DNA from: Candidatus Wolfebacteria bacterium
GTDB lineage: Bacteria > Patescibacteriota > Minisyncoccia > UBA6257 > UBA9933
DNA length: 64,000 bases
Direction of reading: 5' to 3'
NCBI GenBank assembly: GCA_016188075.1
Contig: JACPIO010000017.1
Coordinates: 23,406 to 87,405, forward strand
Both the position numbers and the translations under genes were made by a program. This document shows, in pieces, positions 6,727 through 49,913 of the stretch (within the stretch, counting starts at the first letter, position 1; the number at the start of each line of letters is the position of its first letter). The notes below the pieces were generated by a model. That model worked only from the letters and a program-made list of their open reading frames with translations, was not told where the DNA came from and ran no database searches.

Positions 6727-6898
6727 TTGTTGACCCCAACACCAATAGTGGATAGGTTATCATAATAAAGAAAAATTTTGTATATATATTTATAATTTAA
6801 ACCAATTTGGCAGAAATATGGTTAGACGAGAATTTATCAATCCACTATTGGTGTGGGGTTGAAAAAACCCAATTTATATGCTAAGATGTTGAAAACCC

Positions 6899-13220: not shown

Positions 13221-13619
13221 ATGAAATTAACAAACAACAAAAAAATCTTCATAGTCGGCGGAATAACAATTTTAACCTTATTACTAGCAACATCCGCCTT
13301 GGCCCAAAATCCTGATCCTACAACACGGACCGGCATAAGTCGTATAGCGGGAGTCCCAACAAACCCAAACGAACTCCTTACTAGGGTAGGCGACTTCGTA
13401 AGATGGGCATATATTCTCTTTTTTATTCTAGCTGTTCTGTTTGTTCTGATTGCAGCCTATACCTACCTTACAGCTGCTGGCAACCAGGAAAAAATCGATA
13501 AGGCTAAAACTATGCTGATTTACTCTGCCGTTGCGGTTGCTGTGGCCTTAATGGCAATAGTATTTAACACTATTATAGGAGGATTCGTCGGTGGTGGCGG
13601 CGCCATCCCCAATCCATAA
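13221..13619 (+). CDS. TrbC/VirB2-like pilin-family protein, paralog 4
   Basis: Signal peptide (SALAQN), helix - AAGNQEKIDKAKT - helix, Gly-rich C-terminus. Confidence 0.5.
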   Translation: MKLTNNKKIFIVGGITILTLLLATSALAQNPDPTTRTGISRIAGVPTNPNELLTRVGDFVRWAYILFFILAVLFVLIAAYTYLTAAGNQEKIDKAKTMLIYSAVAVAVALMAIVFNTIIGGFVGGGGAIPNP

Positions 13620-13776
13620 GTCATTAACTATCCCCCGCACTCTTGGTTATTTAATGGTTAGTGCGGGGCAGGGCCAAGAACGATATTTTTTATTGTTTTT
13701 CGCCCTGCCCGGTAGTAGACCCTGCCCAATTTTACGATTTAATCTTACGACTTACGATGTCGTAAATAATTAATAC

Positions 13777-14163
13777 TTGCTAATGTCTAAATTTTTTAGA
13801 AAAATTTTTTACGCAGCGGTGGTTTCCTTTTTACCGATCTTTTTTATAAGATTAAAGGTTTTCGCAACAGAGGTTGGTGGCACAAGCGGCCAAACCTATA
13901 CCCTTCAAGACCCTCTCGGCAACCAAAATATTCTTACCATCATAGGCCGGGTTATTGACTACCTAATTTACATTAGCGTTCCGCTCCTTGCCTTATTTAT
14001 TCTCTGGGGCGGTTTTCAGATTTTGGGCGCCAGAGGCGATGTGGAAAAAGTCAAAAACGGCCGGGCCACTATTCAATGGGCAGTCATCGGCTTTACGATT
14101 ATTTTAGTATCAAAAGGAGTAGCTCTTATTCTTTTAAGAATTTTGTACCCTTCTAGCCCCTAA
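13777..14163 (+). CDS. TrbC/VirB2-like pilin-family protein, paralog 5
   Basis: TM, helix - GARGDVEKVKNGRA - helix. Confidence 0.45.
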   Translation: MLMSKFFRKIFYAAVVSFLPIFFIRLKVFATEVGGTSGQTYTLQDPLGNQNILTIIGRVIDYLIYISVPLLALFILWGGFQILGARGDVEKVKNGRATIQWAVIGFTIILVSKGVALILLRILYPSSP

Positions 14164-16201: not shown

Positions 16202-17658
16202 GCTACGTTTAAACGTAGCAGTGAGAACGTAGCAACGAGGGAGGAACGCCGACAGACGAAAAACCCAGGGGAGCAAAAACCATTAAAACTCTTTTCCTTA
16301 GGAGCCGGCTTGATGATAAATCAAACAATTCTGTCCGCTACGTTTAAACGTAGCGGCGAGGCATACATCAAAAATACAGAGAATGACCGACCGAAAGAAA
16401 TCAATCAGTTCCTCCCGTTCGTTCTCCTGCTCGAAATTAATACTCCGTAGTTAACGTTTCGCAAAATTTTAGAGTTGCGCTCGCGTCATTATCTTTCACG
16501 ACATTATCTTTTAAAACTGCCTGCTACGTTTAAACGTAGCAGGCAGGATAACCATAAAACATCCTCGCCGCAAGCGGCGAGGTATTCGGCGATTAGCGCC
16601 ATAAACAAACTTTTGAAAAGATATTCCAATCTAAAAAGATATTCCGGGCGAAAACTAAAGTTGATCAAGAAAATCCCAGCGACCCCTTCCCTTGTAGGCC
16701 GGAATTTTTCTTCTTTTGTACCGCGGTTCGCGGAATCTTAACGGAATATTTTTTAATTTCTTATCCGGGTTGATTTTTTCCCTCCTTTTTAATCCCCTTT
16801 TCACAAAACTAATGGTGTCGGGACTTACGTCAACAATTTCACCTATTTTCCGGTAAGTTAAACCGCGTTCCAAAAGCAAGAGAGTCGCCAATCTTCTTTC
16901 AAGAAGATTAATTTCGCTTCCCGAAAGAAATTTATTTAAACCGCAGAGCAAGTCTTTTTCGGAGGTTGCTCCCCTTATCTCCGTCAAGAACTTTTGCCAT
17001 GCCGCCCTCTTCAAAATCTCCCCTATGTATTTTTTATTAACATTGACCATCTTTTTATTCTTTTAACCATTACTCCGGCTCCATTCACCATTCTAACAGT
17101 CTTTTGCTAATCCTTAAATTATAAAACAAGTAATTATATATTGCTATGTTTAAACATAGCAGGTTAACTGAAAAAGAAGGGTAGAAGGGCTCCGGATTCT
17201 ATTATCTCTATATCAGCATGAGTGACGTCAGTATATCAATATAAACGATATCAGCAGAGATCATTTCGGCGCAGGACGATTCTCTTCGATCTGCTACGTT
17301 TAAACGTAGCAGACAGAGTAAGGATAATCGCAGCTTAGCCAAAAAAACCAGTCCAAATTGCAAAACTATTATTTTCTCTCCACTACGTTTAAACGTAGCG
17401 CGCAGGGTAGGAATAGACAGAAGATGGTCGAGTAACTGGCGCGAATAAACAGCGGCTCCGAATACACGACAGCCGAGAAAGCAAGAGGGGCAAATATTTT
17501 CAGAAAGCAATACTGCGAAAAATACCGCAATGCTACGTTTAAACATAGCAGCGAGACGTAAATCAACTACCTCGCGGTTAGCACTCGCAAAATTTTGAAT
17601 TTATGCTCGTAACGCTATCGTCTAACTTCTAAAATTGCACGCTACGTTTAAACGTAGC
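16202..17658. repeat. array of eight 18-bp perfect palindromes GCTACGTTTAAACGTAGC (irregular spacing)
   Basis: Cores at 16202, 16336, 16523, 17143, 17293, 17382, 17532 and 17641. Flanks extend the palindrome differently in each copy (a perfect 30-mer at 16517-16546). The copy at 17143 carries a compensatory C>T/G>A pair. Confidence 0.85.
16655..17050 (-). CDS. TrpR-like (YerC/YecD family) helix-turn-helix protein
   Basis: 131 aa; ...LTYRKIGEIVDVSPDTISFVKRGLKR matches the Trp-repressor/YerC HTH; basic C-terminal tail. Sits inside the palindrome array. Confidence 0.6.
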   Translation of the reverse strand: MVNVNKKYIGEILKRAAWQKFLTEIRGATSEKDLLCGLNKFLSGSEINLLERRLATLLLLERGLTYRKIGEIVDVSPDTISFVKRGLKRREKINPDKKLKNIPLRFREPRYKRRKIPAYKGRGRWDFLDQL

Positions 17659-17779: not shown

Positions 17780-17865
17780 GGGCGAGTGGCGGAACTGGAA
17801 TACGCGTACGCCTTAGAAGCGTATGGACTATGTCCTTGAGGGTTCGAATCCCTCCCCGCCCACCA
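17780..17865 (+). tRNA. tRNA-Leu (UAG), CCA encoded
   Basis: Type II cloverleaf: GGGCGAG/..CCCGCCC acceptor (one A-C mismatch), anticodon loop CTTAGAA, long variable arm, T-arm GAGGGTTCGAATCCCTC, then ACCA. A start at 17777 is an alternative parse. Confidence 0.75.
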
Positions 17866-17876
17866 CAGAATTATCA

Positions 17877-18161
17877 ATGTATTATGTTTACATTTTACAA
17901 AGCTTGAAAGATAATCGCACTTATGTTGGTTATACTCAAAATATCACCAACAGGTTGCATCAACACAATAATGGCGAGGTAAGGGCTACTGCAAACAGGC
18001 AACCATTCAAGTTGTTGTATCTAGAGGAGTGTCAAAACTTAATCGAAGCTAAAAGTAGGGAAAATTATTGGAAATCTGGTGGCGGCAGAAGAAAGCTTAA
18101 AAAATATTTTTTGGATGGGTTCCCGCCCCGATTATCATCGGGGCGAGGCTCGCCCAAATAG
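17877..18161 (+). CDS. GIY-YIG nuclease superfamily protein (YhbQ/UPF0213-like)
   Basis: MYYVYILQSLKDNRTYVGYTQNITNRLHQHNNG...: YVY...YVGYT...RL.QH is the GIY-YIG core. Lies immediately 3' of the tRNA-Leu gene. Confidence 0.65.
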   Translation: MYYVYILQSLKDNRTYVGYTQNITNRLHQHNNGEVRATANRQPFKLLYLEECQNLIEAKSRENYWKSGGGRRKLKKYFLDGFPPRLSSGRGSPK

Positions 18162-18226: not shown

Positions 18227-21200
18227 TTAGCGCGAGAAGAGTTTCAAAAGCTCCGCGATTTTTGTTTGAAGCAGAGAAACATTGGCTATAAGCTCCGCGG
18301 GATTGGCGTAGAGAGTGGTTGAGGTCGAAATCGGGGTTGAGGTCGCGTACGGCGGAGTCGAAGTAACGGAATAGCCTACTGCAGGAACAACCGTTATTGT
18401 ATTACCAGCTGCTGATTGAATTCCGGCCGGAATAGAGGCGTTGGAGTTTCGTCCGTAAGCCCGGATATCGGAGGCTGAACCAATGGCAAAAATGTATTGT
18501 CCGCCCGAAGAAGCTCCGCCGGAGATAAGTGGAGCGACGTCAGCTCGCAATTCCAACTCAATAGCGCTATTTTGCGGGACAATGGCCGGGATTGAAAGAT
18601 TAAAGACGTAAACCCAAGTGTCTCTATTAGTTGAACTGGCAATGATTGGTCCAGCCACCACCGTGCCGCTATTCAATAATCTGGCATTTTGGAAAGATGG
18701 CGTTGTCGCGTTGTTGGTCGAGACTGCGGTTATGGTTAAAGCGTCAACCCTAATTGGTTCGGCGGAGTTGTTGGCAAAACGAAAGGTGGCTAAACTGTTA
18801 TTGACTGATCCCATCACCACTTGCGTGGACGACGCGGTATTTGGGCTAATGGATACTCTAAGAAAGGCTGACGTATCCGGCGTGGGCGGAGGATTGCCAG
18901 TTGCTGGCGCCCCGGCAACACGGCGGCAAACATCAAATTGAAGCATTTTCTGGATTGTTAGATTCCCGACAATGCCTGTGCCATTCGGGTTAAGTCCTCT
19001 CGCGATTAGAGCATCGCGCAGGTAATCACGTTGAAATGCTTTTACGGCATCAAAGGTTGGATTAAGAATCAAGTCGAATGAGTAATGTCTATCCTCCAGA
19101 TGCCCGATAAATTGACGGATGGATGAATCCGGGTAAGCGCTTGGATTTATATATCCCAAACTCACCAAACACTCCTGGACCTGGGCTTTTTGAGTCGTGG
19201 TTAGATTTACCGCGGAAATATCCGGGTCAAGTGGGCCGCCGAATCTTCTCAATGGCAATCCAGCACCACCACTCCCTGGCCCTCCTATACCACCCATACC
19301 ACCAGCCGTACCTCCTATACCACCTGGTCCACCTCCAGATGCAGCAGCTTCTGCAGCGGCGGCCGTTGCTGCTGCCTCTGCTTGTTCCGCTAGTCCTTGC
19401 GCTCCCGCAGAAGGACCCGCGGTATCTGACGCTCCGCCGCCAGCTTGAGAAACCGTCCCTCCTGCGCCTGTCGAAGAAATAATCGGTCCTTGATTGGCGC
19501 ACAATTGATTTAATTTTCTTTTTGTATAAGTGCCGACAATGCCCGTGCCGTTTTCTCGGCCGCCAGAAGTGTAAATTTCCGAGGAAAATTGATTTTGAAT
19601 TAGTATAACCGATGACGAGGTTTGAGGCCCAAAGGTACCCAAGCCAAGAGCTTCGCTACTAGGCAAAGTAAATTGAGCAGACGGAATCGTTGCCAAACAT
19701 TGTTGTAATCGAACAACTTGGCTTCTATTGTTGTTGGGTGAATCTCGGCGCAACTCCGTTGAATCATTGTAAAGATCAAAAAGCGGTCCCCGAACTGCCG
19801 GCAAAATCTCAAAATTCAAAAGATTAGCTGTGTCAAAAACATTACTACCGGTAATCGCGGTGTGAACTCTTAAGACAAGACTGGAGAGTTCCGAAACGTC
19901 GCGGAAGGTCAAGCGAACCGAAGTACCGCGCGTCAAATCATACTGGGTTTCCGGGTTAAAACTTTCAATCCGGGCGTTTTGAGACACATAACTCCACTTA
20001 ACCCGATCACGGCAAATCTGTCCTTCTCGGCAGAAAGGGGCGGCCCAGGTAAAAGTGGCGGATTCTCCGGCGTTAAATCTGGTTTTTCCGTCCGGCAAAA
20101 GAGAGAAATTAGAGTTGCCTAAGTTGGGAACAAGGGCTTGGGCTGTGGCCGGCGAAGTTAAGGGACCAGAAGTCGGCGCGCCAGAACCAGGAGCAACTAC
20201 TCCGGGACCGCCAGTTCGCGGTCCGACTGTTACTGAAATACTTCTTCTGCCTATTTCGCCTTGGCCAAACGCGGTAGTCGAAAAAAGCGCTCTCAAAACA
20301 ATGTTGACGGTTCTCGAAGTGCTCGTGCTGTTAGTGATTAAAACTTGAGCCGGGAACAAAGTTTCGTGGAAATTATAAGGACCGTTACCTTGTCTTCCGC
20401 AGTATTCTCGGCCGGCATAACCAACGGTCACTGCGTTATCGTCATTTCCTTCACAGCCAAGAGTAATAATGGGAGAAAAACCAAGACCCGGCCGCTTGGA
20501 CGCATTCAGAGCTACCGTGGTTCCGGAATTAATTGTTATAGATGTAACTGGAGTCGGATTGCTTGCGGAGATGGCGGTAAAAGATGAAATAACCGGGCCA
20601 GAGTCAGCAACGCCCGAGTCAGGAGACGGCGCCGAAAGAGTTTGAACCACCCTAAAGATACCCGCGTTAGTGCTTGGGGCAGACCGCGCTCCGGGAATGG
20701 CAACTGGCCTCCCGCCTAACCAGTAGTAACCGTCGGGCACAATATAATACTGATCCGGCATAATCACCCCCAACGTATTTGAGCTTGCCGCTGGAGTGGG
20801 ATTAAGAGGATTACCGATAAAATACGGGTTATCGCCGTTATAATTTACAGCAATAGTGTCGCCGACTTGGGCCCCGGATCCGATATTAGCCTTGATAGTT
20901 AAAAGTCTGTAGCTGCCGCGAGGAATTCTAACCGGAGTTGTTAATTCAATAAAAGTGGCATTAAGAAATGCAGATGCTGAGAAATTTGCGCTGCCGACAT
21001 TGACTGCGCCGTTCCACAAGGTGAGTCCGTTTATAGCCCGCGGGTTGGTGCCACCGAATTTCAATCCAATCCGCCGGAGATCAATGTCATAGCTATCTGA
21101 AGCGAGACGCAAAATTGTTGTTGTAGTATTTTGGGAGTTGGCAAGAACTTCCAAGTTGCCACCGCGCGGCGAGGTATCGTCGAGAGTTATCGTAAAGGCG

Positions 21201-23047
21201 CCGGTCGTTGGAGCAGGAGTCTGGGTAGGCGAAGGAGTGGCGCCCACCGCAGAGCTTGACCCTACGGCAATGGACACGCTTTTTTGGTCGCTCAATACAT
21301 TGCTTGAGGGATTGGTATTGCTATAAACGCTGTAAGTTTTCAGAATCAGAGTAATTGTTTTTTGAGTATTGGCGCTGTTCGTTAAACGAACCAAAGCCGG
21401 AAAAGTGCTAATAATAACTCCATAAGGCCCGTTTATAACATGATTGTCCGCCGGATGATGACCGCAATAAACTTGGTTATTAGAAACCAAGACTAACGAA
21501 ACATCGCCGCTATCATTGCCCTGGCATTCAAGAGTAGCGGCGGCAACGTTTGCTTCGGAATTTAAACGGGCAGTTAAAGTATTAGATCCGCCGGAATTTA
21601 CATACGGAGAAAAGGCGCTGAAGCTTGAAAGGGCCGGCGCAGGCGTTGGAGTTGGAGTTGGTGTTGGTGTTGGTGTTGGTGTTGGTGTTGTGGCTGGCGC
21701 GCTAACCGTTATTGTGAACGGGCTAGTTTGAGCCGAACAATTGCTTTCGTCAGACGAAGCACAAGCCCAGCCGTAGAGATAATAATTGCCCGTCGCAAGG
21801 GTTGGTGAGATATTCAGGATATAAGGATTAGCTGCGCCGACGGAGGTCCGTGGAAAAGATGATACGCCATCATATCTCAAGCTAAAGTGATTGACCGTAC
21901 CACTTACGCCAAGAAAGCTAACCTGGATAGAGGTAGCGCCCTGGGTGACGGCGGAGGGGGCTGAAACCGAAGAAAGAGTTGGCGCCGGAGTCGGGGTTGA
22001 CGAGACCGGCGCGCTCACAGTCGCGGTTGTGGTTTTGTATGGAGAAGGGGTGCCGTCGTTTTTGAAAGCAGCTCCTTGGAGTTCATAAGCTCCGGCGGTA
22101 GTGGGTGTAAAAGAAATTCCGGTACAGAATCCGGTTACGGCAGTAGCAGGATTCCATACGGACGTTCCCTGAACTCTATACTGGAACCCGCAGAAATCAT
22201 TACTGGCGTACCCACTAAAGTTTACGGTCATCTGATTTCCAAGCGTCACCGAGTTCGCCGAGATACTGGTGAGGGTTGGAGTGGTTGGCGTCGGAGTGGG
22301 AGCCGGAGAAACCGTAACAGTAACCACGCTATTGCTGGATCTGCTGTTATCAGCGCCCAGGGCATAAAGAGTAAAAGTGACCAATCCGGGAGATATGCTG
22401 CTATTATTTACGGTAACGACATTACTGGAATTACTAACAACGTTGGCAGGAACATTAGGGGTAAATCCCGGAATAGAAATACTGGGGTTATCCGAAGAAA
22501 AAGAAAGCCAGCCGCTTACGGCATTTTGAGCCGAAGTGTTTAAGGTTACGTTCGATCCAGATGGAACCGTGGTTCCGTTCTGAGGCGAAGAAAGAGAGGC
22601 GGTTACCGGCGGAGCAGCGATGGTAAACGTGTCCGTGGTCGCACCAATTGGCATTGATTGGCCGTCTTTGGATCCATTCCAGTATACGTTAACGGTGTGA
22701 GTGCCGACATTATTGAAAGTGCAGGTGGCGCTATAAGATCCGCCGCAGTTATTAAGATAGGTTCCGTCGAGATTCACGGTCATTATGCCAGCAATCCCCC
22801 AATTGGAAGGCGGCTGACTCGGATAAGTTCCGGTTGAATCACTGCGATAAACCGAAGCATTGAGCGTGGCGGTACTTCCCGAGACGGTAACGGCTGTAAA
22901 GTTGCAAAAACCAAAAGTTGACAAAGTGTAGCCCGGCACCGCGGCGCATTTAGTATCGGCCTGGGCTTCTTTTGTCAAAATCCCCCCGAAAACTCCGAGG
23001 AAAACGACCGCTAATAATATAATGAAAAAATACTTAAAATTTTTCAT
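18227..23047 (-). CDS. giant secreted/cell-surface protein (1606 aa) with PG-binding-like domain
   Basis: Signal peptide MKNFKYFFIILLAVVFLGV; many Thr/Pro linkers (TPTPTPTPTPTPTPTPAP), Ser/Thr/Asn-rich beta-rich segments, a Gly-rich stretch. Near the C-terminus is a PG_binding_1-like segment (TQKAQVQECLVSLGYI...FDAVKAFQRDYL...GTGIVGNLT). Confidence 0.7.
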   Translation of the reverse strand: MKNFKYFFIILLAVVFLGVFGGILTKEAQADTKCAAVPGYTLSTFGFCNFTAVTVSGSTATLNASVYRSDSTGTYPSQPPSNWGIAGIMTVNLDGTYLNNCGGSYSATCTFNNVGTHTVNVYWNGSKDGQSMPIGATTDTFTIAAPPVTASLSSPQNGTTVPSGSNVTLNTSAQNAVSGWLSFSSDNPSISIPGFTPNVPANVVSNSSNVVTVNNSSISPGLVTFTLYALGADNSRSSNSVVTVTVSPAPTPTPTTPTLTSISANSVTLGNQMTVNFSGYASNDFCGFQYRVQGTSVWNPATAVTGFCTGISFTPTTAGAYELQGAAFKNDGTPSPYKTTTATVSAPVSSTPTPAPTLSSVSAPSAVTQGATSIQVSFLGVSGTVNHFSLRYDGVSSFPRTSVGAANPYILNISPTLATGNYYLYGWACASSDESNCSAQTSPFTITVSAPATTPTPTPTPTPTPTPTPAPALSSFSAFSPYVNSGGSNTLTARLNSEANVAAATLECQGNDSGDVSLVLVSNNQVYCGHHPADNHVINGPYGVIISTFPALVRLTNSANTQKTITLILKTYSVYSNTNPSSNVLSDQKSVSIAVGSSSAVGATPSPTQTPAPTTGAFTITLDDTSPRGGNLEVLANSQNTTTTILRLASDSYDIDLRRIGLKFGGTNPRAINGLTLWNGAVNVGSANFSASAFLNATFIELTTPVRIPRGSYRLLTIKANIGSGAQVGDTIAVNYNGDNPYFIGNPLNPTPAASSNTLGVIMPDQYYIVPDGYYWLGGRPVAIPGARSAPSTNAGIFRVVQTLSAPSPDSGVADSGPVISSFTAISASNPTPVTSITINSGTTVALNASKRPGLGFSPIITLGCEGNDDNAVTVGYAGREYCGRQGNGPYNFHETLFPAQVLITNSTSTSRTVNIVLRALFSTTAFGQGEIGRRSISVTVGPRTGGPGVVAPGSGAPTSGPLTSPATAQALVPNLGNSNFSLLPDGKTRFNAGESATFTWAAPFCREGQICRDRVKWSYVSQNARIESFNPETQYDLTRGTSVRLTFRDVSELSSLVLRVHTAITGSNVFDTANLLNFEILPAVRGPLFDLYNDSTELRRDSPNNNRSQVVRLQQCLATIPSAQFTLPSSEALGLGTFGPQTSSSVILIQNQFSSEIYTSGGRENGTGIVGTYTKRKLNQLCANQGPIISSTGAGGTVSQAGGGASDTAGPSAGAQGLAEQAEAAATAAAAEAAASGGGPGGIGGTAGGMGGIGGPGSGGAGLPLRRFGGPLDPDISAVNLTTTQKAQVQECLVSLGYINPSAYPDSSIRQFIGHLEDRHYSFDLILNPTFDAVKAFQRDYLRDALIARGLNPNGTGIVGNLTIQKMLQFDVCRRVAGAPATGNPPPTPDTSAFLRVSISPNTASSTQVVMGSVNNSLATFRFANNSAEPIRVDALTITAVSTNNATTPSFQNARLLNSGTVVAGPIIASSTNRDTWVYVFNLSIPAIVPQNSAIELELRADVAPLISGGASSGGQYIFAIGSASDIRAYGRNSNASIPAGIQSAAGNTITVVPAVGYSVTSTPPYATSTPISTSTTLYANPAELIANVSLLQTKIAELLKLFSR

Positions 23048-29114: not shown

Positions 29115-30230
29115 TTATATAGAGATATTATATTTATAAATACCAGATTTCGAAGCTTGATGTTGAATGCTATTCCAATTTCGATTAGGCAACATTGACA
29201 AAATCTCGGTTTTGGATAAGAGGGGATAAAATTGTTTAATAACTTGTTTTTCCTTTTGCGAATAATTTTTTCTATATTTCATTTCAATTTTTATACACCG
29301 TTTTGCCGCCTGAAATTTTCTTTCTATATATAAATAAGCATTGGTATAGAGATAACCTAAGAGAGTTTTAGCAGAATTACACCGATAAGCAATGTGGCAT
29401 AAATTATACTTCCCGTCTTTAGATATAGATTTTGTAACAGTAGAGTAAATATTAAATTTTTTAAGAAAATAGTTTCGGATAAAAGTTACAGTATTTTCTC
29501 CGCCACAAATACTTAAGTTGGGATAGCCTAGTTTATCAATCGAAATGCCCCCATCTCCATCTACAATGCCGCGAATAAAATGTCTAACATATTTTCCGGG
29601 GATATCTGGAATTTTTTCGCGAAGGCTTTTTTGATAAGAAATTTTAAGAATTTTTAAATCATCAACAATTTTTTGGCTGGTAATACATAAATAGGCCGCA
29701 CTTTTAACTAAAGATATTTTATGTTGAGAAGAAAGTTCCCTTTTTATTTTTTCTAAAATATCGACATCTCGTTTTTGAACACCAAATTTCAAAGCATCGC
29801 TATATCCCTCATGCGTTCCTCTAGTAATACAGCCATCAGCCAAGGTAAAACCAAGAACATAAGCCATATTGGGCGACCACTTTTGGAAATAAGATTCATT
29901 GACGTTTATTTTTGGTTTATTAGTACTCCGTTTCAATCCCAATCTCTCTCCTTGAGCTAAGATAGCCGACCACGATCTTTTGGGTAAAAAATTTAACAAT
30001 TCGCCCTCGGTAGAATCTTTAAAATATTTTTTAAGTATTTCATTTTCTTCTCGCTGCCATAATTTTGCGGATGACAAACTAAGACTTAGGGCTTTTGCGA
30101 CTATCGTATCCCTGGTACGCCCAGGGAATTTTTCTGCTATATCTTTGACCCTGAATTTTGGATATAAGGCTATTAAGAGCTCGACTTCTTTATCAGACCA
30201 ATAATGATATTTAATACTTCTATTACCCAT
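29115..30230 (-). CDS. free-standing LAGLIDADG-family homing endonuclease
   Basis: 371 aa; two LAGLIDADG motifs (LGFTLADGC and IRGIVDGDGGIS) with flanking helical W..E..L..Y repeat modules. Very AT-rich gene between topA and dprA. Confidence 0.75.
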   Translation of the reverse strand: MGNRSIKYHYWSDKEVELLIALYPKFRVKDIAEKFPGRTRDTIVAKALSLSLSSAKLWQREENEILKKYFKDSTEGELLNFLPKRSWSAILAQGERLGLKRSTNKPKINVNESYFQKWSPNMAYVLGFTLADGCITRGTHEGYSDALKFGVQKRDVDILEKIKRELSSQHKISLVKSAAYLCITSQKIVDDLKILKISYQKSLREKIPDIPGKYVRHFIRGIVDGDGGISIDKLGYPNLSICGGENTVTFIRNYFLKKFNIYSTVTKSISKDGKYNLCHIAYRCNSAKTLLGYLYTNAYLYIERKFQAAKRCIKIEMKYRKNYSQKEKQVIKQFYPLLSKTEILSMLPNRNWNSIQHQASKSGIYKYNISI

Positions 30231-31297: not shown

Positions 31298-31825
31298 ATG
31301 CAATTCAAAAAATATTTTTTAACTCGAGTCGGAATTGATCTCGCGATCATTATTGCCGCTGCCATCCTCGCGGTCTTTATCGGCTCCGACATGCGAAACC
31401 GCGCCGCCAAAATTACTTCATTAAGAGACGACATTGATTTCTGGACTCAATCAACCGAATCCCTGGCCTTGCTCCGCGAGGACCGGGCTCGAGCCCAAAA
31501 CTATTCCGCCGAACTTCAGAATAGGTTGCCCAGCCGAGACGAGCTTTTAAATTTTTCACGGGATTTAAACATCATCGCCAATCAAAATAAGGTGGGTTTT
31601 AATTCTTCTTTGGGAAACGAAGAGAGGGGCGCCAACGATAAATTGGGCAGAGTGTCTTTTAATTTGACAGCCGAAGGCGCGCTTGATAACATTTTAAACC
31701 TTGCGAAGGGAATAAAAAACAGCCGATACTTTGTCAATACGACCAATTTCGATCTTGTGGCGAAACCCGGAGACGGTTTCCGGCTTTCTATGAACGGACA
31801 GGTATTTTCGTTTTATTCACGCTAA
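31298..31825 (+). CDS. hypothetical membrane-anchored protein (PilO-like topology, speculative)
   Basis: 175 aa; N-terminal TM helix, coiled coil, beta-rich C-terminus. Confidence 0.35.
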   Translation: MQFKKYFLTRVGIDLAIIIAAAILAVFIGSDMRNRAAKITSLRDDIDFWTQSTESLALLREDRARAQNYSAELQNRLPSRDELLNFSRDLNIIANQNKVGFNSSLGNEERGANDKLGRVSFNLTAEGALDNILNLAKGIKNSRYFVNTTNFDLVAKPGDGFRLSMNGQVFSFYSR

Positions 31826-32028
31826 TGACTAAACTATTAAAAAACAGAGAGGTAATTTTTATTGCCCTTAGCCTGCTTTTCCTTTTTCTCGTGGGACTCG
31901 CCGTCTTTTACTCCGTGAGTTTTCTTTTGGACAATTTCCAAAAAGCAATTTCGGAAAACGGGGCAACTGACCAGCAGATTTCCAAATTCAATTTAAAAGG
32001 ATTGGAAGAATTGGGAATTATAAAGTAA
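31825..32028 (+). CDS. hypothetical small membrane protein
   Basis: 67 aa, one TM helix; translationally coupled to the preceding ORF. Confidence 0.3.
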   Translation: MTKLLKNREVIFIALSLLFLFLVGLAVFYSVSFLLDNFQKAISENGATDQQISKFNLKGLEELGIIK

Positions 32029-32038
32029 GCCTTTTTTC

Positions 32039-32294
32039 GGGCGCGTAGTTCAGCTTGCCCCGCCACCTCTGGGCATGTAGCTCAGTGGTAGAGCACAGTC
32101 CTGATAAGACTGGGGTCGGAGGTTCGATCCCTCCCATGCCCACAGAGGTGGCGGGGTGAAGTAGAACGCGTCTCTGATAAAGACGAGGTCGGAGGTTTTC
32201 CCGCATTCATCCCGAACGCAGTGAGGTTAAGCAAGCGCAATCCCGCACAATCCGCCTCTGACAGATTTGTGCGGGACGATCCTTCCCGCGCCCA
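32039..32294 (+). pseudogene. tRNA-Ile(GAU)-like gene interrupted in the D-loop and T-loop (outer copy)
   Basis: 5' GGGCGCG-TA-GTTC (32039-32051) ... GAAC-G-CGTCT-CTGATAA-AGACG-AGGTC-GGAGG-TT (32164-32197) ... CGATC-CTTCC-CGCGCCC-A (32277-32294). Acceptor, D-stem, anticodon arm, V-loop and T-arm all pair. Insertion 1 (32058-32156) is the inner tRNA-Ile with 13-bp IR flanks; insertion 2 (32198-32276) has 7-bp terminal IRs tcccgca/tgcggga. Confidence 0.5.
32071..32142 (+). tRNA. tRNA-Ile (GAU)
   Basis: GGGCATGTAGCTCAGTGGTAGAGCACAGTCCTGATAAGACTGGGGTCGGAGGTTCGATCCCTCCCATGCCCA; flanked directly by perfect 13-bp inverted repeats ccccgccacctct / agaggtggcgggg. Confidence 0.85.
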
Positions 32295-32298
32295 CACG

Positions 32299-32375
32299 AA
32301 TTCCGCTAAAATTTTTAACAAAAATTTTATAGCGGAATTCAGTGTCCCGAGCGAGTCCCGATCGCAATCGGGACG
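32299..32375 (+). terminator. two consecutive hairpins after the tRNA-Ile locus
   Basis: gaattccgctaaaatttttaacaaaaattttatagcggaattc is an AT-core hairpin like the one after tRNA-Gly at 3133-3160. gtcccgatcgcaatcgggac is the same family as the hup terminator. Confidence 0.45.
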
Positions 32376-32466
32376 ACGAGGGGCTACATAAGCCACCCGG
32401 GTGGCGTATTGAATTGTATTACAAAACCCCTATCAAATTGAACCGATTTCTATTAGAATATTTAGA

Positions 32467-32838
32467 ATGGCTCTCATTCTTTACCTTGGCAATCGTTTTT
32501 TCTATCGGCTCGCCGAATTCTTCCGACATTGGTACAAAAACAGCTTCCGGATTTACGGCCACTTTGTAATTTCCACTCTTGAAAAACTCGACCAAAGTTT
32601 AGCTTGGAGAATCACTCTCAAGCACCTTTTTGAACCCCTTTATCAAGACCGCAGTTTTATCGGCTATATTTTGGGTTTCATTTTTCGAGTGGGGAGGCTC
32701 ATAATCGGCGGCGCAATCCATCTCTTCCTCATAACCATCGCCCTTCTACTCTATCTATCTTGGCTCGTCATTCCCGTTTTCATAATTTCTAAAATACTCA
32801 ATCTGCCGATCCCCATAAATATTCCAAACTTTTTCTAA
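32467..32838 (+). CDS. hypothetical membrane protein
   Basis: 123 aa; C-terminal TM helices; its stop abuts the start of the Clp ATPase. Confidence 0.35.
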   Translation: MALILYLGNRFFYRLAEFFRHWYKNSFRIYGHFVISTLEKLDQSLAWRITLKHLFEPLYQDRSFIGYILGFIFRVGRLIIGGAIHLFLITIALLLYLSWLVIPVFIISKILNLPIPINIPNFF

Positions 32839-35354
32839 TGCCAGAATTTAAGATGCAAAATTTATATCTCAAGGATGCGCGGATCGAGATGGCGACCGCC
32901 CTCCGTTTCGTCCTTCGCCTTATCACCTATTCTTTTTATACCTTATTTACGGCGGCTGTTTTATCCCTGCTCCTCACTGATATCCCCTCTCTGTTTTGGC
33001 TGGGAGTTTTGGGCGCTTTATTTTTAGCGGACAGAATGCTCCACGTTGGCGAAGCCGAGAGGACGCTCAACGACCCGGGGGCGAGCACCGACGAGACAAT
33101 CAATATTGCCAACCATCTCGCTCCAAAAACTTTATCGATTCTCGAAAGGGCGATCGAGCGGTCATCCATCACCGGAAGCAATCTCCATCTCTCGCTTCTC
33201 AAAATTTTAATCAAAGAAAAAGACGTCGCGGAGGCGCTCGCAAGATTGGAAATATCCAGCAAAGAATTTGAGACGAAGATTGACGACTTGCTGAAAAGCG
33301 AATTGACTCAAAAGATTTTTAGGGAGAAATTATTCGACGATGTCGCGGCCTTAACCAAAATTGCTTTTGTCCTCGGCCAGGCCTCGAAAGAAAAATTCAT
33401 TGAGCCCAGAGTTTTATTTGCCGCCGCCCCCCTGGCTCAAGACGCGAAACTAAACAGACTTTTCGGCGTTTTCGGAATAGATTCCCAAGATCTCCAAAAC
33501 GCGATGCTTTTCGGCCGGTTCAGCCGAGACTCTGGCTGGCTTAAAAACTTGCCGGCTTCTTTGGCTGGTTTCGCGAACAGTCCCTCGAGAATCCGCAAAC
33601 GCTTTATGAATCGCGCCTGGACAGCCCGACCCACGCCCACCCTTGACAAATACTCCATAGATTTCACCAATCTCGCGAGACGGGAAAAAATAGGATTTCT
33701 CATAGGCCACAAGGAAGAATACAATCGCCTGATTGACATTCTCTCTCGTCCGTCAAAGCCAAACGCGCTTTTAGTGGGCGACCCGGGCAGCGGCAAAGAA
33801 ACGATTATCGCTCATCTCGCTTTTAAAATCGCGAAAGACGAAGTCCCGGCGGCCCTTTTTGACAAAAGATTGATTTCTCTGCAGATCGGTAATTTGGTTT
33901 CCGGCGCCACCTCGGATGAAGTTTCGAAGCGCGTCAATGACGTCATCGGCGAAATTTTGGCGGCCGGAAACGTCATCCTGCACATTCCCGACATTCATAA
34001 TCTCACCAAAACTTCAGGGCCTCAATATCTAAGCGCGGCTGACATCTTAATCCCGGCAGTGACCACCGACGAATTTCCGCTCGTCGGCTCCACCTATCCC
34101 AGAGAATTTAAAGCAATGATAGAATCGCAAAGTGATTTTTCTTCGGCGTTTGAGATAATCCGCGTTAACGAAATAAGCGAAGAGGAAGCAACCCAAATTT
34201 TAACTTACGAGAGCTTGGTTTTGGAAAAACAATATCACCTGACAATAACCATCGGCGCCGTGAACCAAGCAGTCAATCTGGCGCATAAATATTTTCGGCA
34301 AAAATTTCTGCCGTCGAGCGCCGAAGAACTGCTGAAAGAAGCTCTGGCCTGGGCTAGCCAAAAAGGCGACCGAATCCTCCGGTCCGACGATTTGATTCAA
34401 ATCGCCGAGCGAAAAATCAACATTCCTCTTCATCGCACCAACAAAGAAGAAACGGAAAAACTGCTTAATCTGGAAAGCCTCATCCACGAAAGACTGGTTG
34501 ATCAGGAAGAAGCGGTCAAAGCCGTGAGCAGCGCTCTTCGAGAATACCGGAGCGGCCTGGCGCGCCAAGGCGGACCCATGGCGGCGTTTCTTTTTGTCGG
34601 ACCCACGGGCGTGGGCAAAACCGAACTCGCCAAAACCTTGGCGAAAATCCAATTTGGCTCGGAGAAAATGATGATCCGCTTTGACATGTCCGAATACCAG
34701 GATAAACAAAGCATCTACCGCTTTATCGGCTCTCCGGACGGCAGGATGGCCGGCAATTTGACCGAATCCGTTATTCAAAAACCCTACTCGTTAATTCTTT
34801 TGGATGAATTTGAAAAAGCCAATTCGGACATCTTAAATCTTTTTCTTCAAGTATTTGACGACGGCCGACTAACCGATAACCTGGGACGCACCATTGATTT
34901 CGTAAATACGATGATCATTGCCACTTCGAACGCGCATTCGGAATTCATAAAAACGCACATTGAAGCCCATACGCCGATGCCCGTGATCGCCGAAGAGCTC
35001 AAAAAGAAATTGACGGACTATTTCCGGCCGGAATTATTAAATCGCTTCTCCAATATAATTGTCTTTAAAACCTTAAGCCGTGAGGACATTGAGGCGATTG
35101 CGCGGATTCAGCTTAAAAACCTGGCCCAAGACGTACTCGAAACCAACGCCATCAATTTATTCTACGATGACGCCGTGGTAAAAAAAGTTGCCGAACTCGG
35201 TTTTGATCCGGTCTTCGGCGCCCGACCTTTGCGCGGCGTTATTTCCGACAAAATCCGGAGTGTTCTGGCGGAGAAAATCTTGAAAGGCGAAATCGTAAAA
35301 GGGAGCGAAATAAAAATATCCCTGGAAGCCGATGAGTTAAAATTCTCTTTTTGA
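32838..35354 (+). CDS. Clp/Hsp100-family AAA+ ATPase (ClpB/ClpC-like) with hydrophobic N-terminus
   Basis: 838 aa; Clp_N-like repeats. D1 has a degenerate Walker A (GDPGSGKE) and Walker B (VILHIPDIH, no DE). D2 is canonical (FLFVGPTGVGKTELAK; LILLDEFEKAN) and a C-terminal D2-small domain is present. Confidence 0.75.
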   Translation: MPEFKMQNLYLKDARIEMATALRFVLRLITYSFYTLFTAAVLSLLLTDIPSLFWLGVLGALFLADRMLHVGEAERTLNDPGASTDETINIANHLAPKTLSILERAIERSSITGSNLHLSLLKILIKEKDVAEALARLEISSKEFETKIDDLLKSELTQKIFREKLFDDVAALTKIAFVLGQASKEKFIEPRVLFAAAPLAQDAKLNRLFGVFGIDSQDLQNAMLFGRFSRDSGWLKNLPASLAGFANSPSRIRKRFMNRAWTARPTPTLDKYSIDFTNLARREKIGFLIGHKEEYNRLIDILSRPSKPNALLVGDPGSGKETIIAHLAFKIAKDEVPAALFDKRLISLQIGNLVSGATSDEVSKRVNDVIGEILAAGNVILHIPDIHNLTKTSGPQYLSAADILIPAVTTDEFPLVGSTYPREFKAMIESQSDFSSAFEIIRVNEISEEEATQILTYESLVLEKQYHLTITIGAVNQAVNLAHKYFRQKFLPSSAEELLKEALAWASQKGDRILRSDDLIQIAERKINIPLHRTNKEETEKLLNLESLIHERLVDQEEAVKAVSSALREYRSGLARQGGPMAAFLFVGPTGVGKTELAKTLAKIQFGSEKMMIRFDMSEYQDKQSIYRFIGSPDGRMAGNLTESVIQKPYSLILLDEFEKANSDILNLFLQVFDDGRLTDNLGRTIDFVNTMIIATSNAHSEFIKTHIEAHTPMPVIAEELKKKLTDYFRPELLNRFSNIIVFKTLSREDIEAIARIQLKNLAQDVLETNAINLFYDDAVVKKVAELGFDPVFGARPLRGVISDKIRSVLAEKILKGEIVKGSEIKISLEADELKFSF

Positions 35355-38663: not shown

Positions 38664-38990
38664 CTCTCTGAAATCTCTAAAAAATATCTAAAGCAGAAAT
38701 ATCACCCCGCCCCGCATCTCGCTGTATAGGACACTATACAGATAAAATCACCGCGAAAACTCGTCTCGTAAACCCCGTTAGAACGGGCGCTTCGCGGCCG
38801 GCTGATGGGAGCATTATACTCCCCATCAGCTATTTTATCTCTACCGCCGACAGAGTCGGCGGCGTTCTAACGGGGTAAATCTCTAAAATAAAAAATCTGT
38901 CGGTTCGCTATTCACTCTATTCCGCTGTATAGCACACTATACAGCTCAAATTGAGACGGGAAGTCATAAGCAAATCGCTTCATAAACGAA

Positions 38991-39386
38991 TTACCAATGG
39001 GGTCTGCGTCGTTCTTTTCTGATAAATCTGTATTTTCTAAATTTCAGCTTTAAGGGGTCGCGCCAGCCGGATCGGGCATTATTTTTAGTTTCAGAATATT
39101 TCCGTTTTTTCCAAACCGGTCTTTTGAAGTTGTTTTTAACAAAATTTACAGTTGCCCTTGTTACGTCCGCCCTCCTCGCAATCTCCGAATAGGAGATTTT
39201 TTCCTTCAATAGACTTTTGACCGCCAGTCGTTTTTCCATCAAGACAATTTCCTCATCGGTCAAGCCGCGCCTCAAGGCATTTTTGAGTTCGTTTTCATTC
39301 CTCGACGCCCGAAGGTTTACAAAAAATCCCTCCCAGATTTCTTTTTTAAATTTTTCATCAAAATACTTCCTACTCGTCCTGCTCAT
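38991..39386 (-). CDS. TrpR-like (YerC/YecD family) helix-turn-helix protein, paralog 2
   Basis: 131 aa; ...ISYSEIARRADVTRATVNFVKNNFKR is a Trp-repressor-like HTH; basic C-terminal tail as in 16655..17050. Confidence 0.6.
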   Translation of the reverse strand: MSRTSRKYFDEKFKKEIWEGFFVNLRASRNENELKNALRRGLTDEEIVLMEKRLAVKSLLKEKISYSEIARRADVTRATVNFVKNNFKRPVWKKRKYSETKNNARSGWRDPLKLKFRKYRFIRKERRRPHW

Positions 39387-41641: not shown

Positions 41642-41990
41642 TGGTGGAGATGAGGGTATTGAAACCCTGTCCAAAAATTAACTTTAAAAATTTCTACAGG
41701 TTTAGTCCCGATGAATGAAGGATTAAGGAATGAAATCGGGACGAAAAATCCTTAATTCTTTGCCGATTTTTGTCCCCGCCAAAATTGGCAATTTAGGCGG
41801 GCTAGTCTAATTTATTACACCCGAACCTCTTGATTCAGACACCCAAGAGCGGATGCCGCTTAGGCAAAAGCGAAAGCGGGAGCTAATCTGTTATTGGCAG
41901 ATATAGTTTTGATTCGATGATTTTCAAGGTGACGAATCATCCTTGACCTGCGATTTTTAAAGATCATTTCTGTCGAGGCCTTGCATCCCC
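41642..41990 (-). ncRNA. ssrA: tmRNA (SsrA)
   Basis: 5' GGGGATGCAAGGCCTCGACAG... and 3' ...GGACAGGGTTTCAATACCCTCATCTCCACCA. G3-U70 wobble in the acceptor (Ala identity), T-arm-like hairpin. Candidate tag ORF GCC AAT AAC AGA TTA GCT CCC GCT TTC GCT TTT GCC TAA (ANNRLAPAFAFA*). Adjacent to smpB. Confidence 0.75.
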
Positions 41991-47386: not shown

Positions 47387-49913
47387 TTATTTTCGGCGGT
47401 TCATCAACTTCTCCAGCTCGTAAACCATCTCGGTGGTTTTTATAATCGCGTCCGGGTTCAAAGACATTGATTCGATTCCTTCTTCAATCAAAAACTTGGC
47501 GAATTCCGGAAAAGTCGAGGGCGCGTCGCCGCAGATACCGACATACTTTTTGGCTTTACGGCATTTACGGATTACTTCGGCAATAAGTTTTTTTACTGAT
47601 TCGTCGCGTTCGTCGGCAATTCCTTTAATTTGGCCGCCGGCGTCGCGGTCAATGCCAACCGCAAGTTGGGTTAAATCATTCGAACCAATACTCATTCCGT
47701 CAAAAATTTTCAAAAACTCGTCGGCTAAAATGACGTTCGAGGGAATCTCGGCCATCACGTAGACTTTCAACGCAGACTCACGCTGACTTTTTTCCGCGTA
47801 GTTCCGCGTTAGTTTCCGCGTAGTTCCGCGAAAAAGTCCTTGCTTTGCCATAATGGCAAGGACTTTTTGTCCTTCCTCGGCTGTTCGGCAAAAGGGAATC
47901 ATCACCGCGATATTATCCAATCCCATTTCCTCGCGGACTTTTTTAATAGCCTTAATCTCTAAAATAAAGGCCGGCGCGAAATCCGGATGGTAATAGCGGG
48001 AGGCGCCGCGCCAGCCAATCATCGGATTCTCTTCTTGCGGTTCGTAGAGCTCGCCGCCGATTAAAGTGCGATATTCGTTAGTTTTAAAATCGGAGAATCG
48101 GACAATCACCTCTTTGGGATAAAAAGCCGCCCCGATTTTTGCGATACCATAAGCGAGTTTGTCAATATAAAATTGGGTTTTATCATTGTAGCCGATAGTC
48201 CGCTTTTCAATCTCTTTTATGATTTGTTTTAGATATTTAGTATTTTTGAATTTAGAATTTATTTGAAACTTGGAAATTGGAAATTGGAAATTCCTCTTCT
48301 TGATTTTTTCAAAATCAAGAATGAGGTTCGGATGTATTCCGATTTCCGAAGCGATAATAAACTCTTCCCGAGCCAATCCCACTCCATCGTTTGGCAAAAA
48401 CGATTTTTCAAAGGCTGTGTCCGGGGTCGCGATATTCATCGTGATTTTTGTTTTGGGCCGAGGGATTTTTTTGATATTGTGCTCGACTATTTTGAATTTC
48501 AGTACGCCGGAATAAACCAGGCCATCGCTCCCGGAACAGTCCACTGTAATCATCTCGCCGGTTTTAATTTTCCGCGTGGCGTTTTCCGTCCCCACAACAC
48601 AGGGAATTCCCAGATTGATGAATATTTTTCGTGTCTAAGATCACGCGGGCAAGGCCTGTCGCGATTTTACTCCCAACCGACGCGCCTTTGACGAGTAATT
48701 TCGGATTTCGGATTGCGGATTGCGGATTTTCTAACTTATATTCTTTTACTTTTGAATAATCGCGTTCCGCGTGAATTGTTTCCGGTCGGGCTTGGACAAT
48801 AAAAAGCTTCCCGGTTTTTCCGTCTTTGGCCCATTCCAAATCCATGGGCGTCCATTTTTTATGCCTTTTAGTATAATGTTCTTCAATTAAAACCGCCCAG
48901 CGAGCCAATTTTAGAATTTCTCCATCGTTTAAAATAAAATTTTCTTTTTCTTTTTGGGAGGTTGATACGATTTTTGTGTTTTTGATGGTTCGACGCGGCT
49001 CACCACTGGTGGTTCGACGCCGCCGACCACCAGTGCCGCTGGCTTCTCCATAAATCATCTTTCGATTTTTTACCCCCAATCTTTTATCGATAATCGGCAC
49101 AAGCGCGGACTGACGCTGACTTGACGCGGACTGACGCGAAATATCTCTGCGTAGGTCTGCGTGTAGTCCGCGTTGTTCTGCGAGTTTTGGTTTAAAAACT
49201 AAAAATTCGTCCGGCGTTACTTCGCCCTGAACAATCATTTCGCCCAAGCCCCACGAACCGTTAATGATAATTAAATCTTTGAACCCGGACTCGGTGTCAA
49301 GAGTGAATATCACGCCGGATGAACCTAAATCCGAACGCACCATTTTTTGAACGCCAACAGATAGAGCAACCTTAAAATGATCGAATCCTTTGTCGACGCG
49401 GTAAGAGATCGCCCGATCGGTAAAAAGCGAAGCCATGGCGGAGCGAACCGCGAGCAAAATTTCTTGCGAGCCCCGAATGTTTAAATACGTTTCGTGCTCC
49501 CCGGCAAAAGAAGCTCCGGGCAAATCCTCGGCCGTAGCAGAAGAGCGGACAGCCGTATCGGTATTTTTGCCGTACTTTTTTTCCATTTCGGCGCAGGCTT
49601 GCGCGATGTCTTTCTCGAGATCTTTGGGAAAATTTTTGGAACGAATTTCCTCGCGGATGAGCTTGGCGCGTTTTTCCAAATCATGAAGATTTTTTGTGTC
49701 CAATCCCTTTAAGGCAGTTTTAATAAATTTTTTTAGGCCGGTTTTGTCAAGAAAATAGCGGTAAGCAGTCGCGGTTACGACAAATCCGCCGGGGATATTA
49801 ATGCCCTTTAATTCCAGCTTTTGAATCATCTCGCCCAAAGAGGCATTTTTTCCGCCGACTTCCGGAACGTCTTTAATGGAGACCGCAGAAAGATTTTTAA
49901 TAAAAGGCTTCAT
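47387..49913 (-). pseudogene. ppsA: phosphoenolpyruvate synthase-like gene, disrupted (two ORF fragments 48564..49913 and 47387..48595)
   Basis: N-fragment has the PEP/pyruvate-binding domain and ends ...IATGLARVILDTKNIHQ. C-fragment begins at the ...ELGIPCVVGTENATRKIKTGEMITVDC motif of the phospho-His domain and continues into the TIM-barrel PEP-utilising domain. The frame changes at about 48610 and the ~55 codons that normally carry the catalytic His are absent. Several in-frame low-complexity insertions. Confidence 0.65.

Follow-up and report, generated by a model that had tools for sequence, protein, structure and literature searches.

Interrupted transfer RNA (tRNA) genes are known from archaea as non-canonical, multiple and split introns (Thermoproteales; the split and tri-split genes of Nanoarchaeum and Caldivirga). 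In Patescibacteria, too, tRNA introns abound, some of them group I introns between anticodon positions 35 and 36 (PMC13011429). The nearest published parallel to the locus described here is the tRNA-Thr gene of Caldiarchaeum subterraneum, which was disrupted by a mobile element (PMC3293823). No description of a tRNA nested in a tRNA in bacteria was found in the literature searched (full text). We analysed a 64,000-nt stretch, hereafter the window, of a metagenome-assembled genome (MAG) of Candidatus Wolfebacteria, a member of the candidate phyla radiation (CPR)/Patescibacteria (contig JACPIO010000017.1, 23,406-87,405). In it, an intact tRNA-Ile(GAU) gene bracketed by inverted repeats (IRs) lies inside the D-loop of a second tRNA-Ile(GAU) gene, whose T-loop carries another insertion. 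An earlier note on this DNA had called the arrangement highly unusual; this is so against published bacteria, whereas within the lineage of the window nesting proved to be recurrent.

A single tRNA-Ile(GAU) was called in the whole window by both ARAGORN and Rfam (RF00005, 73.6 bits), at 32071-32142/3. It is the inner of the two genes, and the locus is organised as follows.

32039..32057, + strand: outer tRNA-Ile(GAU), piece 1, with acceptor GGGCGCG, TA, D-stem GTTC and D-loop AGCTTG through G18; a canonical 74-nt tRNA-Ile when joined with pieces 2 and 3
32058..32070, + strand: left arm of the cassette IR, CCCCGCCACCTCT, perfect complement of 32144-32156
32071..32142, + strand: inner tRNA-Ile(GAU), intact, called by ARAGORN and by Rfam (73.6 bits), every stem perfectly paired
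32144..32156, + strand: right arm of the cassette IR, AGAGGTGGCGGGG, with one C (32143) between the arm and the inner tRNA
32157..32160, + strand: TGAA, right end of insertion 1; the G18G19 D-loop is restored only if TGAA is removed with the cassette
32161..32197, + strand: outer tRNA-Ile, piece 2, with GTA, D-stem GAAC, anticodon arm CGTCT-CTGATAA-AGACG, variable loop AGGTC, T-stem GGAGG and T-loop TT
32198..32276, + strand: insertion 2, 79 nt, in the outer T-loop, with a 10-bp hairpin (32241-32250/32267-32276) and TCCCGCA at 32199
32277..32294, + strand: outer tRNA-Ile, piece 3, with T-loop CGATC, T-stem CTTCC, acceptor CGCGCCC and discriminator A

The earlier note had described an intact inner tRNA between perfect 13-bp repeats, and both points were confirmed, the first by ARAGORN and Rfam. 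The two arms are exact reverse complements, each found nowhere else in the window, and they abut the inner tRNA within 0-1 nt on either side; about 0.12 perfect 13-bp IRs with a spacer of at most 130 nt are expected by chance in 64 kb. The inner tRNA, which does not encode CCA and is identical at 68 of 72 positions to the inner tRNA of a related nest (L040, see below), is presumably the working gene.

Insertion 1 is 103 nt long (32058-32160: left arm, tRNA, one C, right arm and TGAA) and sits between G18 and G19 of the outer tRNA, and insertion 2 sits between T55 and C56. Removal of 32058-32160 and 32198-32276 in silico yields a canonical 74-nt tRNA-Ile(GAU) with a 7-bp acceptor (GGGCGCG/CGCGCCC), the D-stem GTTC/GAAC, a 9-nt D-loop AGCTTGGTA carrying G18G19, the anticodon arm CGTCT-CTGATAA-AGACG and the T-arm GGAGG-TTCGATC-CTTCC. 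The proposed nesting in a paralogous tRNA-Ile(GAU) therefore passed the cloverleaf check. All four stems of the outer tRNA are intact despite the two insertions, and the reconstructed gene agrees at 62-64 positions with genuine tRNA-Ile genes from relatives, compared with 61 for the inner gene. For the D-loop insertion, the site given previously was right but the extent was not, since TGAA belongs to it too; removal at the former boundaries leaves a 78-nt remainder, called as tRNA-Ile(gat) by ARAGORN, with an odd D-arm. On the raw region, ARAGORN with intron options reported the inner gene only, and Rfam gave a weak, partial tRNA match (17.1 bits) at 32152-32215, around outer piece 2. An ordinary tandem pair of tRNA-Ile genes had also been envisaged for orthologous loci. 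ARAGORN sees one gene here, as in each orthologous locus, and the second emerges only after in-silico removal of both insertions.

Insertion 2 is indeed a 79-nt insertion in the T-loop, but the end-pairing attributed to it did not hold. Its right end, TGCGGGA, is part of a local hairpin of 10 bp (9 bp had been counted), and the TCCCGCA at its left is a direct repeat of the left arm of that hairpin; its 7-bp 'terminal IR' is therefore weak evidence for end-pairing. By BLAST, insertion 2 has no homologues in any fetched locus beyond the same organism. The downstream spacer and the two other hairpin elements of the window (see below), compared in the same way with all fetched loci, also had none outside it.

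The host is a bacterium, as a transfer-messenger RNA (tmRNA) at 41642-41990 (ARAGORN) attests. The ClpC-like protein encoded at 32838-35354 is identical to a Candidatus Wolfebacteria MAG protein, and the next relatives are ~66-68% identical. Related loci, referred to below by number, were collected via ClpC (8 from species-representative genomes), via alignment of the family of a neighbouring 123-aa protein (80 metagenome loci) and by exact-protein look-up (several more); a look-up with a spurious antisense ORF (open reading frame; 32082-32396), made for further assemblies spanning the locus, returned no record. The gene order shared with relatives runs relA/spoT, topA, dprA, a pilO-like gene, a small ORF (66-69 aa; 67 aa in the window), tRNA-Ile, a conserved membrane protein of 113-125 aa (123 aa in the window), a clpC-like gene and polX. 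Because this synteny is common to them, the compared loci are orthologous. Neighbour-joining trees were built from ClpC and from the 123-aa protein.

A plain single tRNA-Ile(GAU) occupies the syntenic locus in L003, L007, L014/L117, L041-43/L115, L057 and L027/28. Nests are present in L114 (the closest by ClpC), L006/L070/L074, L052 and L040, in which a complete tRNA-Ile lies exactly between anticodon positions 35 and 36 of the outer one (CTGA/.../TAA), flanked by CCTGCCCGCCGAAC... on the left and ...CGGCTTTGGCAGGCGGG on the right. The outer 17 nt of each flank are near-invariant in five lineages whose neighbouring proteins are just 55-65% identical, and the inner tRNAs of these cassettes have a common G(G/C)GTGTG acceptor stem, the acceptor stems of the outer tRNAs being different. 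By these comparisons, the 35/36 cassette behaves as one coherent unit. L044 (JGI contig Ga0315279_10008245, 2100-2500) is a triple nest, a tRNA-Ile inside a tRNA-Ile inside a tRNA-Ile, with two different cassette types at 35/36; the second type, CCCCGATACT...AGTACGGGG, is at the outer level, and the outermost T-arm carries a small hairpin, CCCCGTAGTGAAC...GTTCTACTATGGGG. The second cassette type was also found in L018, within a decayed 5′ shell whose 3′ half is absent. A hammerhead-like motif around CUGA...GAAC in the 35/36 cassettes was considered and rejected, its core being a misfit.

The D-loop site of the window recurs as well. In L036 the sequence reads GTTC-AACCTG/CCCCGCTACATTT-(tRNA-Ile)-...AAATGTAGCGGGG-TGAA/GTAGAA, with the G18/G19 site and the trailing TGAA of the window; the remainder of the outer gene is gone and the next gene begins 12 nt later. 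In L040 the insertion between G18 and G19, also trailed by TGAA, is a hairpin with a 16-bp stem and a 31-nt loop and holds no tRNA, the working tRNA of this locus being located in a 35/36 cassette. Altogether the cassettes fall into three families, all with CCC...GGG inverted termini, and insertions are always in RNA loops, never in stems. The outer shell of L052 looks chimeric: its 3′ half is of the L050/L065 type up to the T-arm, and its acceptor strand is that of its own 5′ half. This is only suggestive of exon co-conversion in a homing-like recombination.

Two further loci deserve mention. Upstream of the nested tRNA of L018 (1244-1500) there are many GC-rich palindromes, one of which, CCTGCCTGCC joined to GGCAGGCAGG, looks like both arms of the 35/36 cassette joined directly with nothing between. 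On a viral contig of 167 kb (IMG/VR 3300049218_000083; L118, 6770-6870), a tRNA-Ile(GAU)-like gene miscalled tRNA-Thr by ARAGORN has a D-loop enlarged to 24 nt, AGGGGAGACCCTCAGAAAGTCACA, in an unrelated setting.

In every locus ARAGORN found exactly one tRNA-Ile, which was the innermost in every case and had all its stems perfect. The state of the outer shells is variable. They are fully paired in the window, L114, L006 and the middle level of L044; one or two anticodon-stem mismatches are seen in L052 and at the outermost level of L044; the shell of L040 is mismatched in all four stems, that of L036 is truncated (3′ part lost), and in L065 and L005/L050 the 5′ half is missing or replaced. A 5′ relic alone is left in L019 and L018, and as an extra fragment in L006. 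In at least six decayed nests the decayed copy is always the outer and never the inner one. Nested loci are scattered on both trees and each has close single-gene relatives. The outermost tRNA of L044 has an uninterrupted counterpart in L057 (34/34 positions of the 5′ half and 35/38 of the 3′ half identical, read by eye), which provides an empty-site reference for that shell. Shells erode quickly, as L044 and L005/L050 are near each other on the ClpC tree and yet differ by the loss of whole shell segments. As a second option, the earlier note had taken the outer copy for a pseudogene into which small elements with terminal inverted repeats (TIRs) had inserted. This best fits the comparative data (L036 truncated; L040 mismatched; L050, L065, L018 and L019 half-deleted; inner tRNAs all intact), and it comes close to the truth while understating a case of recurrent, lineage-wide nesting that appears undescribed.

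Among the 47 tRNAs in all fetched DNA, flanking complementarity of at least 8 bp was found only at nested inner tRNA-Ile genes. The D-loop IRs of the window, L036 and L040 are all perfect and differ from each other at 3, 4 and 6 of 13 positions, each change being mirrored on the other arm. The AT-rich helix beside the inner tRNA in 35/36 cassettes covaries too (CCGAAATTTT/AAAATTTCGG versus TCAAAATTTTT/AAAAATTTTGA). Such covariation shows that pairing matters, be it in RNA or in single-stranded DNA.

Small elements of the kind evoked in the earlier note do exist in the window and in relatives. The same genomes contain tRNA-free hairpin elements, intergenic and 100-160 bp long, with CCC...GGG arms of 12-19 bp and direct repeats of 4-6 bp (target-site duplications) at their ends. 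Two are located in the window, outside the tRNA locus:

6733..6860, strand not assigned: intergenic hairpin element CCCCAACACC...GGTGTGGGG, with TTGA on both sides
38773..38875, strand not assigned: hairpin element CCCCGTTAGAACG...CGTTCTAACGGGG, bordered on either side by the direct repeat TAAA, of a family present in many relatives

Their counterparts in relatives are flanked by ATGAAT (L047, L080), TGAA (L055, L088) or CTAAT (L079). The arms vary from copy to copy yet remain complementary, and the two elements of the window and many of those in relatives have only CCCC...GGGG ends in common, not internal sequence. The D-loop arm of L040 shares its first 10 nt with the arm of the L088 element. 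On the strength of these resemblances, we place the cassette of the window with this putatively mobile hairpin family. As for the termini of miniature inverted-repeat transposable elements (MITEs), insertion 1 has perfect 13-bp TIRs and insertion 2 only 7 bp, doubling as a hairpin arm. At the borders of insertion 1, TG alone is repeated, plus the extra TGAA after the right arm. This TGAA trails the right arm at the D-loop site in all three loci (the window, L036 and L040) and has the sequence of the repeats that flank the L055 and L088 elements, but it has no duplicate on the left; it looks like flank carried over from an earlier site.

The 38773-38875 element is adjoined by an ORF (38991-39386) encoding a helix-turn-helix (HTH) protein, and a paralogous TrpR-like HTH protein (16655-17050) is encoded among small ORFs in a region (16202-17658) where an 18-nt palindrome, GCTACGTTTAAACGTAGC, occurs in eight copies against 0 expected.

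The reading that we favour, with a probability of roughly 0.6, is that resident tRNA-Ile genes are replaced at the DNA level by insertion of promoter-less, helix-bracketed tRNA-Ile cassettes, the outer copy being a relic. The 103-bp cassette, too small for a promoter of its own, would enter the resident gene between G18 and G19, either by transposition in trans or by homing-like gene conversion or recombination with the conserved tRNA halves as homology arms. Insertion would inactivate the resident copy while supplying its replacement, and would be tolerated because the lost function is replaced by the inner tRNA. The resident copy would then persist as a shell, in the window taking later a second, unrelated hairpin insertion of 79 bp in its T-loop. 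The inner tRNA would presumably be read through the shell from upstream by the promoter of the resident gene; our promoter and terminator scan gave no sigma-70-like promoter just upstream of the locus, the nearest being at 31208, before the pilO-like gene. In the transcript, the IR and the D-arm remnants would form a helix of ~22 bp stacked on the inner acceptor stem, from which the mature tRNA could be freed by RNase P and 3′ processing or trimming, perhaps after a double-strand cut, the outer pieces being by-products rather than a spliced tRNA. Since each cassette brings a fresh tRNA-Ile target, nesting can recur, up to three deep in L044. That inner and outer genes are both functional and redundant is unlikely, because the inner one would then sometimes be lost and it never is.

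Several observations weigh against this reading. The outer stems are intact in the window and likewise in L114, L006 and the middle level of L044, which fits recent insertion but would also fit selection on a functional outer tRNA. The placement of insertions in loops only is equally expected of a process at the RNA level, and the 3-6 compensated IR changes between the window, L036 and L040 point to pairing and not to a fixed protein-binding end. A clean target-site duplication is lacking for the cassette (TG only and the extra TGAA), and the 35/36 cassettes show none. The window yielded neither a transposase nor an obvious homing enzyme, and its LAGLIDADG ORF (see below) shows no link with the nests. 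Lastly, the inner gene is established as the only tRNA-Ile(GAU) gene within the 64-kb window and may have company beyond it.

An alternative compatible with insertional replacement, as its later step, is that the shell, no longer functional as a tRNA, has been recruited to a new role, the IR and the outer fragments being selected as a processing or insulating stem for the inner tRNA, like the RNase III stems flanking rRNAs, or as a clamp preventing the near-identical outer halves from mispairing with it. The maintenance of perfect D-loop helices through 3-6 compensated changes and the covariation of the AT-rich helix argue for it. So does the minimum free energy (MFE) fold (-118 kcal/mol, z = -4.9), a single long helix of 4 bp, a 1x1 loop, 4 bp, a 1-nt bulge and 14 bp, which is continuous with the outer D-stem, capped by the inner tRNA and stacked on its acceptor stem. 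RNase Y is also encoded in the window. However, such helices are missing from the unnested tRNA-Ile genes of relatives and from the other tRNAs, and processing therefore does not require them. The arms of tRNA-free hairpin elements vary in the same way on both sides, so that pairing may be a property of the element family. Furthermore, RNase P should be hampered, not helped, by a helix that ties the 5′ leader to the 3′ trailer. We consider co-option possible, although unlikely.

Less probable still is that the insertions are true tRNA introns bounded by helices, cut at the base of the GC-rich helix by a bacterial endonuclease and followed by religation of the exons (e.g. by RtcB). The locus would then give two tRNA-Ile molecules, the intron setting the inner one free in the manner of intron-encoded RNAs of archaea. 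That a canonical tRNA with G18G19 and TTCGATC emerges once both insertions are cleanly removed speaks for this, together with the intact outer stems of the window, L114, L006 and the L044 middle level, the restriction of insertions to loops, the covarying helix arms and the abundance of tRNA introns in Patescibacteria mentioned at the outset. The 13-bp GC-rich complementary arms also recall what is reportedly seen in the leader and trailer of Nanoarchaeum split tRNAs.

Known intron signatures were nevertheless lacking. The earlier note had proposed archaeal-type bulge-helix-bulge (BHB) introns, and this reading failed on geometry: in the nearly continuous 4+4+14-bp helix, with its 1x1 loop and one-base bulge, neither BHB nor the relaxed hBH motif is present and two 3-nt bulges on opposite strands, 4 bp apart, are not formed. 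No register of pairing was found between the 5′ end of the intron and the start of the downstream exon at D-loop or 35/36 junctions, and the 35/36 cassettes have a 4x3 internal loop followed directly by a 13-bp helix, again without BHB. Rfam gave no match to group I or II introns or small ribozymes in the window at gathering threshold, nor in 31800-32500 at E up to 5 (inner tRNA and noise only), and the inserts, of 103 and 79 nt, compare with a group I minimum of ~200 nt. The earlier note had also suggested looking for a tRNA-splicing endonuclease or an RtcB homologue; a Pfam scan of the 57 ORFs of at least 90 aa in the window revealed no EndA-type endonuclease, RtcB or transposase, the hits including RNase Y, an Xer-like recombinase, a LAGLIDADG protein and a small GIY-YIG protein. 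Moreover, at least six nests have decayed, always in the outer and never in the inner copy, close relatives have truncated or deleted shells, the TGAA of insertion 1 looks like a footprint left at the DNA level and insertion 2 is not convincingly end-paired. A specific form of the idea, a Wolfebacteria splicing system that would recognise GC-rich helices of ~13 bp rather than BHB, cut at their base and religate the exons, seems to us hardly probable; if true, self-splicing and BHB introns would be joined by a third class of tRNA intron, the first in Bacteria to be spliced by proteins.

Scars of integration and excision of an island or phage at a tRNA-Ile attachment site are very improbable. 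tRNA genes are classic integration sites, partial copies do occur near full genes (e.g. a 3′ fragment in L022 and a 5′ fragment in L019) and a tyrosine recombinase gene is located at 60004-60912. However, integration duplicates one end of a tRNA on one side of a large element, whereas here 5′ and 3′ pieces flank a complete third copy, in a nested layout and not as a direct repeat. No core sequence is common to the junctions, the inserts, of just 79-135 bp, are non-coding and lack an integrase, and the recombinase lies 28 kb off and is Xer-like in size and domains. Scans of viral contigs for cassette signatures (35/36 cassette right end, left junction, and a generic 'tRNA-Ile inside tRNA-Ile') gave chance or unrelated matches only.

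The continuity of the locus was considered with independent assemblies. In five runs, Logan contigs match the upstream genes and 31955-32105, taking in outer piece 1, the left arm and the first half of the inner gene. Those of two runs (L001 and L002) match the locus from 32167 on and contain an identical insertion 2. The join 32106-32166 is present in the source contig only; it is argued to be real by L036, from an unrelated JGI sample, whose architecture matches that of the window. The Logan breaks were first read as cassette-free strains. The inner tRNA becomes identical to the L040-type tRNA at 32105/32106, and the break there is probably caused by a branch from a co-occurring organism sharing the inner tRNA core. 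L001 and L002 both begin at 32167, where no repeat is evident in the loci examined; a strain variant differing upstream, e.g. cassette-free, may account for this. Although breaks within the locus at 32105/32106 and 32166/32167, and the probable presence in the same samples of an organism with a near-identical inner tRNA core (inferred from the 32105 break), could suggest an artefactual joining of tRNA-Ile genes of co-occurring species, this is the least credible explanation of all: the cassette-specific junctions sit inside Logan contigs of five and two separate runs and so must be in reads, the two IR arms complement each other exactly, unrelated sites yield the same architectures in assemblies held by NCBI, ENA, JGI and Logan, and path switching in an assembly graph is unable to create unique IR flanks.

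Other features of the window were recorded. Between topA and dprA, a 371-aa ORF (29115-30230, - strand) has a LAGLIDADG_3 domain and a weak Myb-like match; as topA and dprA are adjacent in L005 and L114, it is an insertion, 1.8 kb upstream of the tRNA-Ile locus. Its association with nests was rejected, the ORF being missing from these two nested relatives. A 112-aa ORF with a GIY-YIG domain (17823-18161, + strand) starts inside the 3′ part of tRNA-Leu(UAG) (17780-17865), just past the palindrome cluster, and may encode a homing-type nuclease tied to a tRNA gene. A class I aminoacyl-tRNA synthetase of 1207 aa (56140-59763, - strand) resembles isoleucyl-tRNA synthetase by its Anticodon_1 and DUF5915 domains; a His_Phos_1 domain inserted at residues 529-691 splits its catalytic domain. 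Five consecutive ORFs of 128-160 aa matching T4SS_pilin form a tandem array of pilin-like paralogues (11722-14163, + strand), and a 1606-aa ORF (18227-23047, - strand) has no Pfam match at E up to 0.001. Pyruvate phosphate dikinase is present as two overlapping ORFs (47387-49913, - strand; PPDK_N 48564-49913, PEP-utilizers_C 47387-48595), which may reflect a frameshift, a split gene or a sequencing error.

If insertional replacement is correct, the cassettes would be selfish or semi-selfish insertions that evade counter-selection by carrying a working copy of the essential gene they destroy, in contrast to introns and inteins, which escape by splicing, and the recreation of its own target by each insertion would explain nests up to three deep. 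They would provide a bacterial example, at the DNA level, for the debate on the origin of interrupted and split tRNA genes, so far argued from archaea, and would imply that the very small genomes of CPR bacteria turn over an essential tRNA gene rapidly. If splicing were instead to prove true, the locus would reveal a new RNA-processing pathway in Bacteria. Annotation also calls for caution, as tRNA fragments around CPR tRNA genes are meaningful and tRNA finders report the innermost gene only.

How does the locus compare with known systems? Bacterial rRNA intervening sequences are likewise helix-bounded loop insertions in a structural RNA gene, cut out of the RNA by RNase III with no religation; rRNA tolerates fragmentation, whereas a tRNA cut in its D- and T-loop should not, and here the insert would itself be the useful product. 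MITEs share with the cassettes their short length, the absence of protein-coding sequence, TIRs of 13-19 bp and related copies with 4-6-bp target duplications in the same genomes. The cassette differs from them in carrying a functional tRNA as cargo, in sitting in the gene that it duplicates, in having no clean target duplication and in arms that vary by compensated changes where MITEs keep a single conserved end; we know of no cognate transposase for it. Archaeal introns resemble the insertions in their D-, anticodon- and T-loop positions, in the ~13-nt GC-rich complements at exon ends and in their clean removal. Here, however, the host is a bacterium, BHB is absent, the endonuclease was not found in the window, the insert is a complete isoacceptor tRNA and the outer copies decay.

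The group I tRNA introns of Patescibacteria (PMC13011429) come from the same phylum and use the same unusual 35/36 site as the commonest cassette family of the relatives, precisely and with no target duplication, and exon co-conversion during homing would fit the chimeric L052 shell. In contrast to them, the inserts are much too short and have no ribozyme core, the insertion is preceded by an exon A and not U, and the cassette of the window is in the D-loop; harm to the host would be avoided by a spare gene and not by splicing. With Caldiarchaeum tRNA-Thr (PMC3293823), the nests have in common heterogeneity of the locus within a population or lineage, a tRNA fragment beside a full replacement gene and a disruption attributed to mobile-element activity at the DNA level. 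In Caldiarchaeum, a 1.8-kb recombinase-encoding element separates fragment and gene, and the new gene has BHB introns; in the present case the nested, non-coding inserts measure 79-135 bp, and the replacement tRNA lies inside the old one.

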